This document shows, piece after piece, positions 2,065-61,986 of a stretch of 64,000 bases of DNA. Position 1 is the first letter of the stretch. Each line of letters opens with the position of its first letter. This DNA comes from Escherichia phage ST0: the sequence record MF044457; one strand, written 5' to 3'. Under the pieces are notes generated by a model. That model did not search any database. It had not been told where the DNA came from and was given only the letters and a program-made list of their open reading frames with translations. Made by a program: the position numbers and the translations under genes.

Positions 2065-3390
2065 ATGCAATTGAATTCTCGTAATCTAAAAAGTATTATT
2101 GATAACGAAGCCTTAGCATATGCGATGTACACCGTTGAAAACCGTGCAATCCCAAACATGATTGATGGATTTAAGCCGGTTCAACGTTTTGTGGTTCATC
2201 GTGCGTTAGATTTGGCTCGTGGTAATAAAGAAAAATTTCATAAACTTGCGTCAATTGCAGGAGGTGTTGCAGATTTAGGTTATCATCATGGCGAATCTTC
2301 TGCACAAGATGCAGGTGCATTGATGGCTAACACATGGAACAACAACTATCCGTTGTTAGATGGCCAAGGCAACTTTGGTTCTAGAACAGTCCAAAAAGCT
2401 GCAGCATCTCGTTATATTTTTGCTCGTGTAAGTAAAAATTTCTATAACGTATATAAAGATACTGAATATGCTCCAGCTCATGAAGATAAAGAACACATTC
2501 CGCCAAAATTCTATCTTCCTATTATTCCGACAGTTCTTTTGAATGGCGTCTCCGGTATTGCAACCGGTTACGCAACAAATATTCTGCCTCATAGTTTTAA
2601 ATCAGTCAAAAAGGCTGTATTACAAGCTCTTCAAGGTAAAAATGTCACTAAGCCAAAAGTTGAATTCCCGGAATTCCGTGGTGAAGTACATGAAGTTGAT
2701 GGGCGTTATGAGATTCACGGAACATATAAGTTCACATCTCGCACTCAAATGCAGATAACTGAAATCCCATATAAATTCGACCGTGAAACGTATGTGAGTA
2801 AGGTTCTTGACCCGTTGGAAGACAAAGGTCTAATCTCATGGGAAGATGATTGTGGTGAACACGGCTTTGGGTTTAAGGTGAAGTTCCGTAAAGAGTACTC
2901 GCTTCCTGATGATGAAGAGCTACGTCATGAAAAAATCATGAAAGATTTTAGTCTCATCGAACGTCGTTCACAAAACATCACAGTGATTAATGAAAAGGGT
3001 AAATTAGCAGTCTACGATAACGTAGTGGACTTAATCAAAGATTTTGTTGAAGTCCGTAAGACTTACGTTCAGAAACGTATTGACAACAAAATCCTTGAAT
3101 CTGAAAAAGCGTTTAAACTTGCTTTTGCTAAGGCACACTTCATCAAAAAAGTTATTACAGGTGAAATTGTGATTCAGGGCAAGACTCGTAAAGCTTTGAC
3201 TGAAGAGCTAGCACAAATCGAAATGTATAAAGAACATGTCGATAAACTGGTAGGTCTTAACATCTTCCATATCACTTCCGACGAAGCACGTAAACTGGCA
3301 GAAGAAGCTAAAGCTAAGAAAGAAGAAAATGAGTATTGGAAGTCTACCGATGTTGTGACAGAGTACACTAAAGACTTGGAGGCACTTTGA
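2065..3390 (+). CDS. 52: DNA topoisomerase II medium subunit gp52
   Basis: 441 aa; recalled T4 gp52 similarity throughout, length matches T4 (442 aa). Confidence 0.95.
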   Translation: MQLNSRNLKSIIDNEALAYAMYTVENRAIPNMIDGFKPVQRFVVHRALDLARGNKEKFHKLASIAGGVADLGYHHGESSAQDAGALMANTWNNNYPLLDGQGNFGSRTVQKAAASRYIFARVSKNFYNVYKDTEYAPAHEDKEHIPPKFYLPIIPTVLLNGVSGIATGYATNILPHSFKSVKKAVLQALQGKNVTKPKVEFPEFRGEVHEVDGRYEIHGTYKFTSRTQMQITEIPYKFDRETYVSKVLDPLEDKGLISWEDDCGEHGFGFKVKFRKEYSLPDDEELRHEKIMKDFSLIERRSQNITVINEKGKLAVYDNVVDLIKDFVEVRKTYVQKRIDNKILESEKAFKLAFAKAHFIKKVITGEIVIQGKTRKALTEELAQIEMYKEHVDKLVGLNIFHITSDEARKLAEEAKAKKEENEYWKSTDVVTEYTKDLEAL

Positions 3391-3466
3391 GTGCCCTAGC
3401 CTTAGGATTTCTCGGTGCAATAGCTGCACTAGTGATTTGGCTGTATTGGTTGGACAAACATGATTA

Positions 3467-3487
3467 GGGAGCTTCGGCTCCCTTTTG
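3467..3487 (+). terminator. rho-independent terminator
   Basis: GGGAGC-TTCG-GCTCCC hairpin followed by TTTT. Confidence 0.7.
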
Positions 3488-3507
3488 TGCATTTTTCTCG
3501 CAAAACA

Positions 3508-3536
3508 GTTTACATGTGCTTCAAACATGATATTAT
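3508..3536 (+). promoter_or_regulatory. early promoter (GTTTAC, 17-nt spacer, TATTAT)
   Basis: GTTTAC at 3508-3513, TATTAT at 3531-3536; the roughly 70-bp promoter-to-ATG cassette is nearly identical to the one at 3829-3897. Confidence 0.65.
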
Positions 3537-3575
3537 AGACCTATCAAAACAAAACAACCAAATTGGAGAAATAAA

Positions 3576-3791
3576 ATGTCTAAAATGAAATTAACCCAAA
3601 ACACAACTACTCGTTTTGGTAAAGTTAAACCTGGTATGAATGCTCCCCGTAAAGCACTTGTTGAAGAATTAAATTTCTTAGAAGTTGAAATCAATTCTTT
3701 AGTGGTTCGCGGTTCAAATGGTCATCATTTAGAAAAGCTTCGTTCTAAAAAGGCAAAACTTATTGGCCTTATTAAAGAAATGAGTTTGTAA
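3576..3791 (+). CDS. hypothetical basic protein (71 aa)
   Basis: ORF with SD GGAGAA and upstream early promoter. Confidence 0.5.
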   Translation: MSKMKLTQNTTTRFGKVKPGMNAPRKALVEELNFLEVEINSLVVRGSNGHHLEKLRSKKAKLIGLIKEMSL

Positions 3792-3828
3792 ATTTTACCA
3801 GGGCTTTTGAAAAAGAGCCCAAAATAAA

Positions 3829-3857
3829 GTTTACTTTTGCTTCAAACATGATATTAT
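3829..3857 (+). promoter_or_regulatory. early promoter (GTTTAC, 17-nt spacer, TATTAT) upstream of motA
   Basis: GTTTAC 3829-3834, TATTAT 3852-3857; near-duplicate of the 3508 cassette; preceded by hairpin GGGCTTTT...AAGAGCCC at 3801-3820. Confidence 0.65.
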
Positions 3858-3894
3858 AGACCTATCAAAACAAATACTAATTTGGAGAAATAAA

Positions 3895-4527
3895 ATGTCT
3901 AAAGTTACTTACATCATCAAAGCTTCTGAAAACGCTCTGAATGAAAAAACTGCTGCAATAATGGTTTATATCATTAAGAACAACTTCACCACTGCTGCCA
4001 ATGTCCGTGAAGCTCTGGAAGCGGAATACAATGCATCGGTTGTTAACTCTAACATTGGTGTATTGATTAAGAAAGGTTTAGTCGAAAAATCTGGTGATGG
4101 ACTTATAGCAACAGGCGAAGCAATGGATATTATCCAAAAAGCTGCAGACCTCTTTGCCCAAGAAAATGCTCCAGAACTTCTTCAGAAACGTAACACTAGA
4201 AAAGCACGTGGAGTTACTCCTGAAATGCATGAATTAGCAAACTTTGTTTTTGAAAATATTAAAGATAAAGTTGAAGTTAAAGAAATTGGTGAAAACCGTA
4301 GTAACTTGGAAGTTCGATTTGCAAAACGAGTTCTAGGTATTCGTCAGATCGAAATTCGTCGAAATGGTTCTCTTAGAATCTTTGCATACAACATGTCAGA
4401 AACCGAATCAAAGCTGTTTACTTCTCTTGAAAATGATGTTAAGATTAAGATCGGTGGTAAATATACTTACATTGACTTCCCTAATGTGTCCAAAGAAATC
4501 ATTACCCTTGTAACTAACGTACTGTGA
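3895..4527 (+). CDS. motA: middle-transcription activator MotA
   Basis: 210 aa; recalled T4 MotA similarity (MSKVTYIIKAS...NSNIGVLIKKGLVEKSGDGLI...AQENAPELL). Confidence 0.93.
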   Translation: MSKVTYIIKASENALNEKTAAIMVYIIKNNFTTAANVREALEAEYNASVVNSNIGVLIKKGLVEKSGDGLIATGEAMDIIQKAADLFAQENAPELLQKRNTRKARGVTPEMHELANFVFENIKDKVEVKEIGENRSNLEVRFAKRVLGIRQIEIRRNGSLRIFAYNMSETESKLFTSLENDVKIKIGGKYTYIDFPNVSKEIITLVTNVL

Positions 4528-6676: not shown

Positions 6677-7336
6677 TTATTTAGCCCTTCCTAGTATTCG
6701 GACCGCTTGGTTGCATATAGCCGCTAAGCGGTCTTCCTCAAGTATATTACTCCCCTTATACCAATACATCGTCACAGTTCCGGCATAGATGTTATCCAAA
6801 TTAAAGTATGGACAACTATACATATAAGAAAGTTCGGCAGTCTTAGATTTTGTAGGCAAAAATGCAAATTCTGATTTAGATGAGAAATGACGGCCACTTA
6901 AATGAATTATATATTCATTGGCCGTTTTATCCACCGGGAATCCGCCAAGGGACTTTTCAGAAATTGTGCTAGGTAGTTTGCCTTCATAAGCTATAAGGTC
7001 GACGAAATAATTTAAGTTTTTAGGTCTGAAAGAATACACAGCACTAAAATCCGCACCAGATGAGATATGAACTATTTGCAGTTGTTCTAGAGCCGCAGAT
7101 TCAAAACGTAAAGCTCGTTCTTTTTGGATTATTTCAGTATAAGTATCATACTTAGCTCTTACATAATAATCCAGCAAAATACTTCCTTTGTACCATATTA
7201 GTGCCATTAGGAACAAAAGAATAATTACCGCTACTCGGGACATTAAAACCTTTCCAGTAGCGTTATCTTTGAAAATACGATCTAGCAACCCAAATAGAAT
7301 ATCACTAAGTGAAAATGATACTTTTGGTGTTGCCAT
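6677..7336 (-). CDS. t: holin T
   Basis: 219 aa; recalled T4 holin similarity (FSAVYSFRPKNLNYFVD.IAYEGKLPSTISEKSLGG.PVDKT, YMYSCPYFNLDNIYAGT.TMYW), N-terminal transmembrane segment. Confidence 0.95.
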   Translation of the reverse strand: MATPKVSFSLSDILFGLLDRIFKDNATGKVLMSRVAVIILLFLMALIWYKGSILLDYYVRAKYDTYTEIIQKERALRFESAALEQLQIVHISSGADFSAVYSFRPKNLNYFVDLIAYEGKLPSTISEKSLGGFPVDKTANEYIIHLSGRHFSSKSEFAFLPTKSKTAELSYMYSCPYFNLDNIYAGTVTMYWYKGSNILEEDRLAAICNQAVRILGRAK

Positions 7337-7345
7337 AATACCTCC

Positions 7346-7897
7346 TTACTTAAAGATATTTATAATCGCTTTGACAATAGATTTGTTTTCAAGGTCAGGG
7401 AATTTAGGGAATTCACCGCCAAGATGTTCATGCTTTTCTAAAAGGGCAAAGAATTTTTTGAGCTCTTTATATTTTCGTTTTTCTTCTCTATTAGCAACCT
7501 CTGCGTCAATAAGAGAATTTAAAACACTGAATAATTTATAGAGTTCATGAATTTTCTTATCACGTTGAACTACGCGTTTATATGCTTCATCTTCCTTCCA
7601 CCCGTCGCCGGTCCAAATGTCAAATTCACCAGGTTCTTCTGTAGTAACATTTTGAAGAGCACCTGGTGTGTCAATAACAATTTTTTGCTTATCATAAGTC
7701 CATACTGTTTTTCCACGATGGTCTTCAACATATACCCATTCTTGCTCGCGTTCGTCAAATATAACAGCATAGCCTTCTTTAGGGTCTAAAGGTTTTTTTG
7801 GTGTCGAATGAGCCGGAAATCCTACGCCTTTTAATGGTTTATAATTTTCTTCTTTGTAAAATTCTTTAGTGTCAAAATAATAGTGATAGAGTTTCAT
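7346..7897 (-). CDS. 38: gp38, T4-type tail-fibre assembly chaperone (183 aa)
   Basis: Recalled T4 gp38 similarity (M.YHYYFDTKEFYKEENYKP...EKHEHLGGEFP); length is that of the T4 chaperone form, not the longer T2-type adhesin. Confidence 0.9.
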   Translation of the reverse strand: MKLYHYYFDTKEFYKEENYKPLKGVGFPAHSTPKKPLDPKEGYAVIFDEREQEWVYVEDHRGKTVWTYDKQKIVIDTPGALQNVTTEEPGEFDIWTGDGWKEDEAYKRVVQRDKKIHELYKLFSVLNSLIDAEVANREEKRKYKELKKFFALLEKHEHLGGEFPKFPDLENKSIVKAIINIFK

Positions 7898-7926
7898 ATT
7901 ATAAAAGGGACAGAAGTCCCTTCTCC

Positions 7927-10900
7927 TTATGCTAAACGAACGATATAGTTAAAAGCAACGTTTTTAACTGTGTTTTCTGTATTACCTGTACTATTTACAG
8001 TGATAGTATGACCGTGCGAACCAATAGCTACTGAATGAGTGTGAGCGCCAATACCTACGGTGTGAGTATGAGCGCCAATACCTACCGTATGCGCATGGTT
8101 GCCTGTGGTGCTAGTAGTACCAGACCAACTATGGGTGTGGGCACCATCATTTGATGTTTTACCGACCTTAGTTGCTAAAGTCGAACCAGTGATACCTGAG
8201 TTAAGTTTAGCGTATGCGTTTGCACTTATCGTAGTAACCCCGTCTCTAAACAAATCGTCTGCCCATGCAGCAGTGACCTGTGGACCTGAACGCGTGTGTT
8301 GGTGAGCACCAGCGGAACTAGTATTACCACTCACTGTATGGCTATGGTTGCCAGTGGTATTACTGGTCTTAGTACCATAATCAAAGCTTGAAGTCGTTTT
8401 GCTACCGTAATCAAAACTTGACGTATTTTTAGTACCCAAATCTGTGTTTGATGCACTTGCACTATGGCTATGTGACTTAACACCGTCTGCTTCTGTACTT
8501 AATACAGCACGACCAGATGGTTTACCCTTGATAGTTTGACCACGCATATCAGGCAGAGTGCCGGAAGGATACACTGCAGCTAACTTAGGATACAAGCCAG
8601 CATCAAATGTTTGACCTTCCATTATGGCATAGCCTTCAGGAGGTGTATCAGTAGGCCAAGGAATCGGAGCACCAATCGGGTAACTCGAGACAATATCCGT
8701 CTTAAGGTTATTTATTGTGGTATTCAAGTTAGCAAAATTACCAGAACCACCAGTGATATTACCATCAGTACCAATACGAACATTACCAGCGCCTAATTTA
8801 CCAGGAGAATAAAAATCACCGTTTTTATTAAATTCCCATCCAAGATCCTTTATAACAGCACCAGTAGAAACGCCGTCACCACCTTCGTGATAATGAACTC
8901 TAAAGTTACCACCATTAATTAAAGTACCAATAGAATAGCAACTATTATTTTGAACGTATCTTTGTTTCACAATAGGAACATAAGTGCTTGTATCGGTTCT
9001 ATCTATATTCATGTAGAACGGAGCACGAACGTTTTCATTATTTTGTGAAGCAAAAGAACCAGCTCCAGCAGGTCGTGCAGTATCAGTACATTCAGCGTCG
9101 ATATATGCCGATTGTCCTAATTGCATACGGTAATTAGGAGAAATGCGACTATGGCTAGTTATAACAACAAGTTTATTATCATTATCAACGGTCACCATAT
9201 TACCGCCAGCACCGTCATCACCTAACGTAACAGAATGGCGCATTTGAACCATACCATTATTAAGACTAATACTTAGTGGACGGAGATTACTTATTCCACC
9301 ACTTTCACCTGCATCTTTAAGTGTAGGTATAATATGCAAAGACGCTTCAGAACGACGGAAAATAGCTCCATATTCAGCATTGTAAATACGGAAAGCATCT
9401 GCGGTATTACCGATTTTAACTTGACCGGTAATAGAACCGCCACCGGATAAAACAAGCCCGTTATCCATAGTAACTTGTCCGGATAATGCACTTAATCCAT
9501 TAACTCTAAGACTTCCATCGGTGATAATGCTCCCTCTAGCATTAACTTGTCCATTGAACTGGGTTACAACAGGTCCCACAGTTTCTGAATCGGTTGGAGC
9601 TATGCGCTGAGAATAAAAATAATATCCCTGCCCGTCAGCTACTTCAAAAACTGTTTCACGAGTACGATCGCCGGATGCGTTAAATGAATTACCCCATGCT
9701 TTAACAGTTACGTAGCTTTTATTCTGCCCAGCACGAGTACCACCTTCCCACAAAATTTGCTTAGTGCCATCAACTGTAGTAGTTGGAGCGAATGTTAGCC
9801 CGGCAGTAGAATTATTAGCTGCTAAATATACACCATTATATATTGAAAGCTGCTTAGTGGATGTAATACCGCCATCAGCATAAAACATCACATTATTTGC
9901 ACCGGTTACCAATTTCAAAATACCCGGGTTAATTTCCATACCTTGTTGGGTATTGATATTCATCTGACCTGTACCACGGAAATAATGGGAAAATTTACCG
10001 CCAGAATTATATCCAATGTGGGTTTGACCATCACCTGCATTGTTTGTATCAGCCTGGGTTTGAACCGATAAAAGCGCGGCGTTGGTTCCAGGCATTGTCC
10101 AGGTTCCGCCTTGGTCTTCTGAGCGTCCAAATAATGCTTTACGAGTACTACGGAAACTATCAGGAGTAATAGAAGCAACAGAATTCCAATTACCTACTAA
10201 ATCATAAACGCCTTGCTTAATATATTTTAAACCAGTTGCAGCATCGCCCAAAGCAATATATCTTTCTCCCATTGGAGTAGGAGAGCCATAGTTGTTAGTA
10301 TTTTCGTCAGCAGTAATTGTGCCAATAGCAAGTGAACGACGTAATACCATTGCGCCATCATTACGAAGACCCATTAATTTAGTAGTAAGTGTATTTCCGG
10401 TCCACCAAGAAATTTCATCGTTCTTACCAGTTTGAGCTGAAGCGATTTCATGGTAAATAGTTCCGCCTGATTTAGCTCGAACTTTACGAAGATAGTTTAT
10501 ACCATTTTCTTCACCTGTTCCAGGATAAACATATTGAACTAATGATTGTGAATCATATTGTCCGAATGCCTTTGTATCTAAAATAATATTTTTAGTATTA
10601 ATCTGAGGTGAAGTAATATTTCCGAGAGCTGCAATATTTCCAGATGTAGTTATACTACCTCCTGATACTGCTAAACCTCCGCCGTCAACAGTAAATCCGC
10701 CGTCGCGTCGAAACGTCCAATATTTCGAATCGCCAGATTCATTGATATAATGAATCTTCAACGAACCTTCAGAAACTAAAGTACCTAATGAAAAAGTTCC
10801 ATCTTTAAAGCGTTGTTTAATTATAGGATTATATTCCGAAGTAGCGGTTGATGCGGAAATATCCATGAAAATAGGGGCTTTTGCCGTGTGTTGACCTGCC

Positions 10901-11199
10901 CAAGAACCAACTCCGGTGGCCTTATAAGCAAATTCGATATATCCACCAGATGCAACATTTTGTGAGCCTATTAAATTAAATGTACCTGTCTGAGTATAGT
11001 TACCTACGTGAGTTACATTACCGTTAATATCGCCGCCTTTAGCAAAGCCTAGGCTAATAATATTACCGAGGTCATCTTTAGTAAAAAGAGTTCGATCTTT
11101 TAAGTTTATCGCTAATTCGCCTTCGGCTAATTGTGCTGCAGTAGGATTAACTCCTGCCACTTTGCTTCTTTTAAATTGTATCTGTTTTAATGTAGCCAT
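7927..11199 (-). CDS. 37: long tail fibre distal subunit gp37 (receptor-recognising)
   Basis: 1090 aa; Gly/Ser/Thr-rich beta-structure composition; C-proximal histidine boxes (GNHSHT, GAHQHT, GAHTHS, GNHAHT, GAHTHT x2, GSHGHT) typical of the gp37 needle domain. Confidence 0.93.
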
Positions 11200-61331: not shown

Positions 61332-61756
61332 TAGCTTAATCCTAATGCTTTACGACGTTTAAGAGCTTTTTTACGCTTACGCAAGCCTTTAACTTGGCCT
61401 GAAGGGTTAGCTTTTTTAGCTTTAACGACCTTACGAGCGATTTGTCTACGTTTTGCTTTAGAAAGACCAGTTGTTTGGAACGCGGTACGTTCACGAGTTT
61501 TACGGTCTTTAGTGCGAGTGACTTCACCACGAGAAGAAACATGTTTAACGATAAACTCATTTAACTGTTCTTCATTAATAATGGAAGCCATTGCAACAGC
61601 TAAATCCGTTTCAGTTTCAAGCATGTTCTCGATAATAGTATTTATATCGTCAATATCGAGAGCAGAAGACAATGCATCGATTCGGCCCTGTGCTTCAGGA
61701 ATAAGTGCTTCGACATTTTCGAGTACCAATTCATAAGATTCAGGGATAAGATACAT
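61331..61756 (-). CDS. 68: prohead core protein gp68
   Basis: 141 aa as in T4; basic C-terminal tail. Confidence 0.9.
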
Positions 61757-61986
61757 TATTCATCGTCCTCATCATCTTCGTCTTCGTCGTCATCGCCTTC
61801 ATCAGCGTCGTCTTCCGAAGCTTTCTTTTCTTCTTCAGGTTCTTCGCCTTCAATCAAAAATTGAGAAGCGATTTCTGCTTTGCGTGCTTCAATCAAACGA
61901 ACCGTTTTTTCTGCCATTGCACTTTCAAAAAACTTTCGAGTAGCAACGAGGTCGTTTGATTTAATAGCTTGAATTAAATCGTCCAT
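61756..61986 (-). CDS. 67: prohead core protein gp67
   Basis: 76 aa with poly-acidic C-terminus. Confidence 0.9.

Follow-up and report, generated by a model that had tools for sequence, protein, structure and literature searches.

[quoted passage not shown] In this trimer the chains leave a knob, go out along a stem, form a head and return, and the HxH motifs of the three chains jointly hold one metal ion per level; the T4 needle comprises seven irons (PMC9603124, PMC11705849). The published limits of these parts in T4 gp37 are residues 811-881 for the knob (domain D10) and 882-931 and 960-1009 for the two strands of the stem (50 + 50 aa), which with the tip makes up domain D11, with 1010-1026 belonging to the knob again, and both the receptor-contact residues and the known host-range mutations fall in the head, at 932-959 (PMC9603124). 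Among other carriers of a T4-type gp37, OmpC is the receptor by experiment for Mosigvirus AV117 and AV118 (PMC10844046) and for Bas40 (PMC8594841), and the tips of G53, KAW3E185 and others, which have 7-9 HxH motifs, have been taken as T4-like needles (PMC6563267).

Here we describe the corresponding tip in Escherichia phage ST0, within a 64,000-nucleotide stretch of sequence record MF044457 (the window) in which a first-pass annotation had drawn attention to a tandem repeat and a histidine-box array in gp37. We consider it probable that this segment is a needle-shaped distal tip in a "long-needle" version common in Mosigvirus and Tequatrovirus, in which the repeat is a length module of the stem and specificity lies in the head. 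The locus itself is an ordinary Mosigvirus tail-fibre gene that has been catalogued before.

Gene 37, gene 38 and the domains of the tip

Gene 37 (7927..11199, minus strand) encodes the long tail fibre distal subunit in an ORF of 1090 aa plus stop (phrog_1699, E = 3.6e-280), which bears out both the length and the gp37 identity first attributed to it. Its best whole-gene nucleotide identity, 93.5%, is to gp37 of Mosigvirus LH01, and full-coverage gene matches have lengths of 3258-3279 nt. In a phmmer search of the PDB with the tip, the match to 2xgf_A (E = 5.8e-88) covers query 23-179, comprising knob and outgoing stem, and query 237-300, comprising returning stem and C-terminus, but leaves the head unaligned. 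Judged by this homology, which takes in the knob, the C-terminus and the two strands of the stem, the tip is a needle of the T4 gp37 type (2XGF architecture).

The gene order 34-35-36-37-38-t-asiA is common to ST0 and T4. As had been claimed, gene 38 (7346..7897, minus strand) encodes a 183-aa protein of the chaperone type, with a tail fibre assembly match (phrog_105, E = 1.6e-49), the Pfam domain Caudo_TAP and 66% identity to T4 gp38. The gene beside 37 is therefore a Tfa-type chaperone gene and not a gp38 adhesin of the T2/T6/S16 type, and T4 likewise has a chaperone-type gp38 next door. In the intergenic region a hairpin between AAGGAG and the gene 38 start codon (7903..7924, minus strand; fold -13 to -16 kcal/mol) is kept in T4 and in 12/12 relatives, with one compensatory change from A-U to G-C.

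Following the chain outwards, the knob or collar, equivalent to T4 domain D10, occupies 8476..8769 (minus strand; aa 811-908) and aligns to 2XGF from residue 2 onward; its limits are those of T4 residues 811-881 (PMC9603124), carried over through a global alignment with T4. Pfam Collar (PF07484) is matched at aa 843-890 with 42.3 bits against a cut-off of 24, and the collar domain thus precedes the stem. The outgoing ("up") stem strand lies at 8296..8475 (minus strand; aa 909-968, 60 aa, corresponding to T4 882-931) and carries HxH boxes at aa 910, 952 and 966. Between its last box and the first returning one is the head or distal tip, a predicted receptor-binding cassette (8158..8295, minus strand; aa 969-1014), which is followed by the returning ("down") stem strand at 7981..8157 (minus strand; aa 1015-1073, 59 aa, corresponding to T4 960-1009), with boxes at aa 1021, 1035, 1044, 1053 and 1062. 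A conserved 17-aa C-terminal segment (7930..7980, minus strand) leads back to the knob and is 96-100% identical at the nucleotide level in all compared phages, T4 included. In both phages the head is inserted between stem strands of near-equal length, 60/59 aa in ST0 and 50/50 aa in T4.

The knob or collar, the HxH stem strands and the C-terminal segment all align with T4, and the 64-residue excess of ST0 gp37 is made up of a net gain of 16 residues in the variable N-terminal part, 11 residues inserted at aa 652, 10 for one repeat unit, about 18 (18 in the alignment) in the head, where the two sequences are unrelated, and 9 for a GIGAHTHxV unit. Within the stem, the only differences are the one extra FDYG unit and the one extra GIGAHxH unit of ST0, which has eight HxH motifs to the seven of T4.

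The histidine-box array is real, but of the seven G.H.HT boxes originally counted only five are exact (aa 950, 964, 1033, 1042 and 1060). A looser G.H.H[ST] pattern gives seven matches, and with SHSHS at aa 910 the tip holds its eight HxH motifs, three outgoing and five returning. The returning boxes are spaced by 14, 9, 9 and 9 residues and include an array of 9-aa (27-nt) histidine-box modules followed by HGH (8008..8097, minus strand), one module more than in T4; Tandem Repeats Finder reports this array with period 27 and 2.4 copies at 8021..8085, and the GIGAHTHxV-type insertion relative to T4 falls at aa 1048-1056 in the global alignment. Divergence is greatest in the returning stem, which has at most 88.7% identity to any database phage.

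Repeat units and proposed rung matching in the stem

The repeat that had been noticed consists of two adjacent 30-nt units, at 8403-8432 and 8373-8402, estimated to be about 75% identical. Direct comparison at these coordinates gives 23/30 identical positions (76.7%), with three of the seven differences synonymous and 8/10 residues identical between the two FDYG units. The pair represents, in shifted phase (8373-8432), the last two of three consecutive copies of a 10-aa (30-nt) module, S-x-D-x-G-x-K, that together span 8362..8451 (minus strand; aa 917-926, 927-936 and 937-946). The unit that precedes the other two (aa 917-926) is more diverged, 18/30 nucleotides being identical to the next by direct count. 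T4 gp37 has one FDYG unit only, as seen both in the 2XGF match and in the global alignment. The first-pass annotation had placed the repeat upstream of the histidine-box array; it sits inside the array, flanked by HxH boxes 1 (aa 910) and 2 (aa 952), and belongs to the standard, widely shared stem of the T4-type tip. One other site in the window reaches 23/30 at period 30, near 61756, and was rejected as a relative of the repeat, the signal there coming from a low-complexity acidic coding run.

We compared tips from two protein databases, IMG/VR and named phages, parsed from the PDMR collar anchor; the word-indexed protein search returned hits of at most 490 aa, chiefly prophage fibres and fragments, and named gp37 proteins were taken from the phage collection. 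Across 213 unique tips, boxes 1 and 2 are separated by a spacer of 29, 39, 49, 59 or 70 aa, and these lengths go with an excess of returning over outgoing histidine boxes of 1, 2, 3, 4 or 5, respectively. This rule is kept in 210/213 unique tips, which are phylogenetically related homologues with only about eight distinct architectures and so do not stand for 210 independent events. Counted by motif, 10-aa units equal 9-aa steps in 197/214 tips, most misses arising where the motif is degenerate but the spacer has the expected length, and the 14-aa steps beside the head are matched in 213/214. The rule is broken by L001, which has three outgoing units and only two 9-aa steps, and by P0224 and P0222. 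A further candidate, P0122, was rejected as a rule-breaker, as it consists of two tandem tip modules of which the first is truncated.

The rule extends to the side or lateral fibre tips of E. coli, Shigella and Enterobacter prophages (lambda Stf-like and P2/Mu-like; Pfam Collar plus Phage_fibre repeat), which share the knob-stem-head-stem arrangement at 55-65% identity and obey rung matching with 2 to about 6 outgoing units, whereas they sit on unrelated N-terminal shafts and their heads range from 30 to 67 aa. We found no explicit statement of the rule in the searchable literature, and the primary structure paper (Bartual et al. 2010) may cover it; it is the sole point reported here that could possibly be new.

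An AlphaFold2 monomer model was used for beta-bridge periodicity only, leaving the head fold aside. It contains short beta bridges with a period of 10 in the outgoing strand (aa 923-925, 933-935 and 943-945) and an equal number with a period of 9 in the returning strand, with pLDDT values there of 65-80; over the whole monomer the mean pLDDT is 64 and pTM 0.32, and pLDDT falls below 50 in the head (tip residues 163-204). The top Foldseek match of the model is 2xgf_A (E = 4.6e-14), yet the global TM is just 0.31-0.38.

Because the outgoing and returning counts co-vary in 210/213 tips, the best interpretation of the repeat is that it forms a structural rung in the needle. From this co-variation and the monomer model we infer that each 10-residue, His-free S-x-D-x-G-x-K module lies alongside one 9-residue xIGxHxHxV returning module, and that one such pair would form one rung and one metal site. 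ST0 would then have three rungs to the two of T4, which would account for stems of 60/59 as against 50/50 residues and for eight predicted metal sites as against seven.

The head cassette and host recognition

With gp38 being of the chaperone type, receptor recognition is expected in gp37; the first-pass annotation had likewise assigned it to the gp37 tip, and the expectation agrees with statements on T4-type fibres (PMC8594841, PMC10844046). Nucleotide similarity to the ST0 head is undetectable in T4, HX01, phi25-307 and Bas42, though the flanks match, and the head is 95-96% identical at the nucleotide level to those of LH01 and G53. At the protein level, 16 phage records carry a head at least 90% identical to that of ST0, and 97 carry heads of the same length with less than 60% identity. 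The resulting mosaic is clearest in HX01, phi25-307, phiD1 and moha, whose outgoing stems are 94-96% identical to that of ST0 and whose heads are essentially unrelated to it: no remnant of identity is seen in the heads of HX01 and phi25-307, and only fragments of 19-31 nt in those of moha and phiD1. The head cassette (46 residues, aa 969-1014) is thus swapped from phage to phage without regard to the stems, and specificity would lie in it. Its target, judging from related phages that have T4-type fibres, is most likely OmpC and/or the LPS core.

The loss in the head of the identity that the outgoing stem shares with these four phages also lends itself to the reading that the conserved DNA repeats, both the histidine boxes and the FDYG units, serve mainly as homology patches promoting exchange of the head cassette, a role that would be compatible with a structural one. 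Megablast matches of many phages end at about query position 202, which is the AHQH box, and the title of a paper by Tetart et al. reportedly points in the same direction. Such patches would leave the matched outgoing and returning copy numbers unexplained; we give this reading a serious but somewhat less than even chance of being correct.

It is improbable, in our judgement, that the FDYG modules instead give the stem a binding surface along its side, to which LPS sugars, for instance, could attach, with copy number tuning host range or how far the fibre reaches through surface glycans. The composition of the motif might suggest this, as Asp, Tyr, Ser and Thr are abundant in it and often in sugar-binding surfaces too; so might copy number, whose variation from 2 to about 6 units in different fibres implies that needle length is evolvable. 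The T4 tip has also been reported to touch receptors at several points along its length, but the T4 host-range mutations lie in the head, at residues 932-959 (PMC9603124), and the motif is near-invariant over fibres with unrelated heads and different hosts, which a structural role fits better. We therefore retain the reading of the repeat as a structural length module of the stem, which would be under purifying selection and would not itself determine specificity.

Distribution and age of the repeat

The duplication and the extra length of ST0 gp37 had been interpreted as recent remodelling of the host-range determinant, with conservation of both the repeat and the length in T4-like gp37 proteins named in advance as the observation that would overturn this. 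We looked for the repeat in relatives and found it conserved: 12/12 sampled phages, from the three genera Mosigvirus, Tequatrovirus and Gaprivervirus, have the same architecture, with two FDYG units at the same position, 3 + 5 histidine boxes and 52 aa between the head-flanking boxes. G53, LH01, PNJ-6, KAW3E185, Aplg8, ATK47 and others (Mosigvirus/Tequatrovirus) combine this architecture with the ST0 head allele, at 90-98% amino acid identity, and their differences from ST0 are allelic only. The repeat is present too in prophage and metagenomic fibres that are just 50-65% identical to ST0 gp37, and the short form of T4 is less frequent than the eight-box long-needle form. A unit is closer to its orthologue in another phage (25-26/30) than to its neighbour in the same phage (about 23/30). 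In VR25 the two units are identical (30/30), so copy homogenisation or re-duplication does occur.

That the tandem duplication is a recent event remodelling the host-range determinant, in the manner of laboratory duplications in T4 gene 37, is thus very unlikely. The single unit of T4 and the identical units of VR25 would accord with it, as would the duplications in the adhesin region of T4 gp37 that Tetart et al. (1996; J Mol Biol 258:726) are said to have found to expand host range, and which resemble the ST0 repeat in being tandem duplications within the C-terminal adhesin region. Unlike those, the ST0 copies are old and have drifted apart, matching at 23/30 positions rather than being near-identical; the same two units recur across genera, in each of the 12 phages sampled, and also in remote prophage fibres; they lie in the stem (aa 927-946), outside the head (aa 969-1014); and they are offset by a second repeat some 300 nt away, to whose copy number theirs is locked. 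The idea that the repeat is a meaningless chance or low-complexity similarity has a negligible probability and is refuted, in spite of Tandem Repeats Finder reporting only the 27-nt repeat and not the 30-nt one at a minimum score of 30, by the failure of all 200 mononucleotide shuffles of the window to reach 23/30 at period 30 (0/200), by the 8/10 identical residues and by the retention of the repeat across hundreds of homologues.

A broader generalisation can be offered tentatively, and may well not hold in full: T4-type needles would be assembled from discrete rungs (10-aa + 9-aa and, nearer the head, 14-aa + 14-aa), their length and their roughly 5-10 metal sites varying only by matched changes at two segments about 300 nt apart, so that the seven-iron needle of T4 would be a short minority form and misfolding would explain the rarity of unbalanced forms such as L001. 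The one solved example, T4, is unrepresentative of the commoner eight-box form, and seven sites should not be assumed in models of eight-box fibres or in estimates of their metal content, such as those used in arguments on "iron in phage tails" (cited in PMC11705849). Host-range engineering of ST0 should take as its target the head cassette at aa 969-1014 and not the repeat, and where stem length is to be engineered, an outgoing unit and a returning histidine-box unit would have to be added or removed together.

Repeat units and histidine boxes in the gp37 tip

The two adjacent 30-nt units in the tip region of gp37 (8403-8432 and 8373-8402), reported in the first-pass annotation as roughly 75% identical, indeed match at 23/30 positions, a level that 200 shuffles of the window never reach at period 30. 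One other natural site in the window attains 23/30 at this period, near 61756 (61756-61830), and was rejected as a structured repeat, being a GAT/GAC/GAA-type codon run that represents acidic low-complexity coding on the minus strand. Tandem Repeats Finder did not report the 30-nt repeat; it did identify a second repeat, of period 27, at 8021..8085, which codes for GIGAHTHxV units. The seven G.H.HT histidine boxes previously described are real but were miscounted: five match G.H.HT exactly and seven match G.H.H[ST], and counting SHSHS (aa 910) as well brings the tip to eight HxH boxes (aa 910, 952, 966, 1021, 1035, 1044, 1053 and 1062). Nor does the 30-nt repeat lie just upstream of the box array, as had been stated; it falls between boxes 1 and 2. 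This spacer is built of 10-aa units with the motif S-x-D-x-G-x-K, of which STDLGTK and SFDYGTK are variants, and contains three such units in ST0 (aa 917-926, 927-936 and 937-946) versus two in T4.

The last 300 aa of gp37 match the solved T4 tip (PDB 2XGF, E 5.8e-88). Global alignment distributes the 64 aa by which the protein exceeds T4 gp37 over a variable N-terminal part (net +16), aa 652 (+11), aa 924-933 (+10, one FDYG unit, the 10-aa module encoded by the 30-nt repeat), the head (+18) and aa 1048-1056 (+9, one GIGAHTHxV unit); T4 has only one FDYG unit where ST0 has two. In T4, each chain extends from the knob as far as the tip and then doubles back; the stem is made up of residues 882-931 and 960-1009 (50 and 50 aa), and a tip subdomain, 932-959, holds host-range and receptor-binding mutations (PMC9603124). 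Transferring these limits through the alignment gives ST0 an outgoing stem of 60 aa (909-968), a head of about 46 aa (969-1014) and a returning stem of 59 aa (1015-1073), so that the extra outgoing 10-aa unit is balanced by an extra returning 9-aa His box.

Age of the duplication

The duplication and the extra length had been taken as signs that the host-range determinant was recently remodelled. That proposal is refuted on its own terms, as one repeat architecture, with two FDYG units, 3+5 His boxes and a distance of 52 residues from the last box before the head to the first one after it, is found in 12/12 sampled phages: the Mosigvirus LH01, G53, HX01, phi25-307 and moha, the Tequatrovirus Bas42, KAW1E185, R5505, teqdroes, KMB23 and phiD1, and the Gaprivervirus VR25. 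Full-coverage whole-gene matches are 3258-3279 nt long. Orthologous units average 25-26/30 identity between phages, versus about 23/30 for paralogous pairs, and the two units within one phage are 21-24/30 identical except in VR25, where they agree at 30/30, which suggests gene conversion or re-duplication within the array and points to homogenisation from time to time. Three of the seven differences between the ST0 units are synonymous, and the remaining four fall in two codons with conservative changes (N/T and S/T). Prophage and metagenomic fibres with no more than 50-65% identity to that of ST0 have the two-unit form as well.

Heads of the ST0 length class are found in at least 113 phage records, whereas the T4-like short tip is found in only 33, several of which come from T4 stocks or are fibres of Felixounavirus. 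The eight-box form is accordingly the commoner and that of T4 the rarer. Within the phage collection, T4's own short tip (9210-9560 of its locus) has 86-92% DNA identity to fibre genes of the Felixounavirus REP11, AYO145A and phiWec177, a similarity that would imply tip exchange between unrelated myovirus groups. Variation in His-box number is already in the literature, with 7-9 HxH motifs recorded in gp37 of G53, KAW3E185, KAW1E185, R5505 and others and read as T4-like needles (Korf et al., PMC6563267).

The head cassette and its locus

Segment-wise comparison shows cassette behaviour of the head. In the outgoing stem the window is matched at 94-96% identity by HX01, phi25-307, phiD1 and moha, yet their heads have no detectable nucleotide similarity to it or only short fragments. 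LH01 and G53 share the head at 95-96% identity. Many of the megablast matches break off at the AHQH box. The ST0 head allele is present at ≥90% protein identity in 16 phage records (98.4% in PNJ-6), while a head of the same length is <60% identical in 97 others. The returning stem (7981-8157) is the most diverged tip segment, with at most 88.7% identity to any database phage and 83.6% to LH01 and G53, whose adjoining segments are 93-100% identical; conversion between His-box units within the gene could account for this, as could a donor not yet sampled. The cassette pattern fits recombination between conserved motifs, to which Tetart et al. 1998 refer in their title. It also agrees with published work in which the head of T4-type gp37 is described as variable and as the determinant of binding (PMC10844046). 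For the Mosigvirus AV117 and AV118 (PMC10844046) and for Bas40 (PMC8594841), all with T4-type gp37, experiments have shown OmpC to be the receptor, and by analogy one might guess that it serves the ST0 head allele.

The locus itself belongs to a well-known family and is unremarkable within it. The gp37 reading frame (7927..11199, minus strand, 1090 codons, with the tip region at its 3' end) is covered entirely by phrog_1699, the long tail fibre distal subunit (PHROG search, E 3.6e-280), includes a Pfam tail collar domain (aa 843-890), and sits in a T4 long-tail-fibre module in T4 gene order, with gp34-, gp35- and gp36-like genes upstream and, downstream, a 183-aa tail fibre assembly protein (phrog_105, Pfam Caudo_TAP, 66% identity to T4 gp38) and then holin t. 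The earlier framing of gp37 as the host-recognition protein and gp38 as its chaperone was right. Elsewhere in the window, a 20-kb region matches the Mosigvirus genomes F2, HX01, JS09 and PNJ-6 at 98% identity, and the window therefore derives from an RB69-like Mosigvirus; its gp37, best matched over the whole gene by LH01 (93.5%), is a mosaic allele. Two plus-strand ORFs antisense to gp38 and holin, 117 aa (7188-7541) and 80 aa (7547-7789) long, encode low-complexity sequence and are in all likelihood spurious.

The interval separating the g37 stop from the g38 start (7898-7926, minus strand) contains a hairpin, AGAAGGGAC-UUCU-GUCCCUUUU, placed after the AAGGAG directly past the stop and before the g38 ATG. 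It is kept in T4 and in 12/12 relatives, with a compensatory A-U to G-C change (GGGAC/GUCCC versus GGGGC/GCCCC), and is annotated in G53 as a putative terminator. T4 gene 38 is a textbook example of a distant Shine-Dalgarno sequence being brought near the start codon by a hairpin.

Matching of repeat number between the two stems

We parsed tips from 120 proteins of a word-indexed search, 150 cluster representatives at 50% identity, 75 IMG/VR loci and 13 named phages. In all but two of 213 unique tips the spacer between boxes 1 and 2 measures 29, 39 (38 in two), 49, 59 or 70 aa, and in 210/213 the returning strand exceeds the outgoing one by 1, 2, 3, 4 or 5 His boxes, respectively, although these tips are related and represent about eight architectures, so that this is not a count of independent events. 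The pattern is consistent across a five-fold range of copy number. Motif-counted 10-aa units equal the 9-aa steps between returning His boxes in 197/214 tips, most of the misses having degenerate motifs with the right spacer length, and the 14-aa steps adjoining the head match on both strands in 213/214.

Genuine exceptions are two degenerate tips (P0224 and P0222) and a single clear full-length case, the metagenomic locus L001 (IMGVR_UViG_3300030021_000020, tip approximately 3260-4069), which combines three outgoing 10-aa units with just two 9-aa steps on the returning strand (3 His boxes outgoing, 4 returning) and so is one returning unit short; either the imbalance is genuine and marks an intermediate, or the metagenome assembly has collapsed a 27-nt repeat. 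The 938-aa fibre protein P0122 was rejected as an exception, since it contains two tip modules in tandem: a first one with the knob, the outgoing stem and an incomplete head, then a new shaft, then a complete second tip.

An AlphaFold2 monomer model built from a 64-sequence alignment, of only moderate confidence (mean pLDDT 64, head <50), places short beta bridges on the outgoing strand with period 10 (aa 923-925, 933-935 and 943-945), an equal number on the returning strand with period 9 (1038-1040, 1047-1049 and 1056-1058), and 7-residue strands either side of the head (954-960 and 1023-1029). Its sole significant Foldseek match in the PDB is 2xgf_A (E 4.6e-14), with a TM-score of 0.31-0.38, which is low, as would be expected when one chain of an interwoven trimer is modelled alone. 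The model hints at the pairing of 10-aa with 9-aa modules that we infer.

The rung-matching rule was not found stated in the accessible literature, and it may be the only new point here. The best explanation of the repeat is that it forms a structural rung in a metal-stapled needle, with an additional His box on the returning strand as its counterpart; the ST0 tip would then have eight predicted metal sites.
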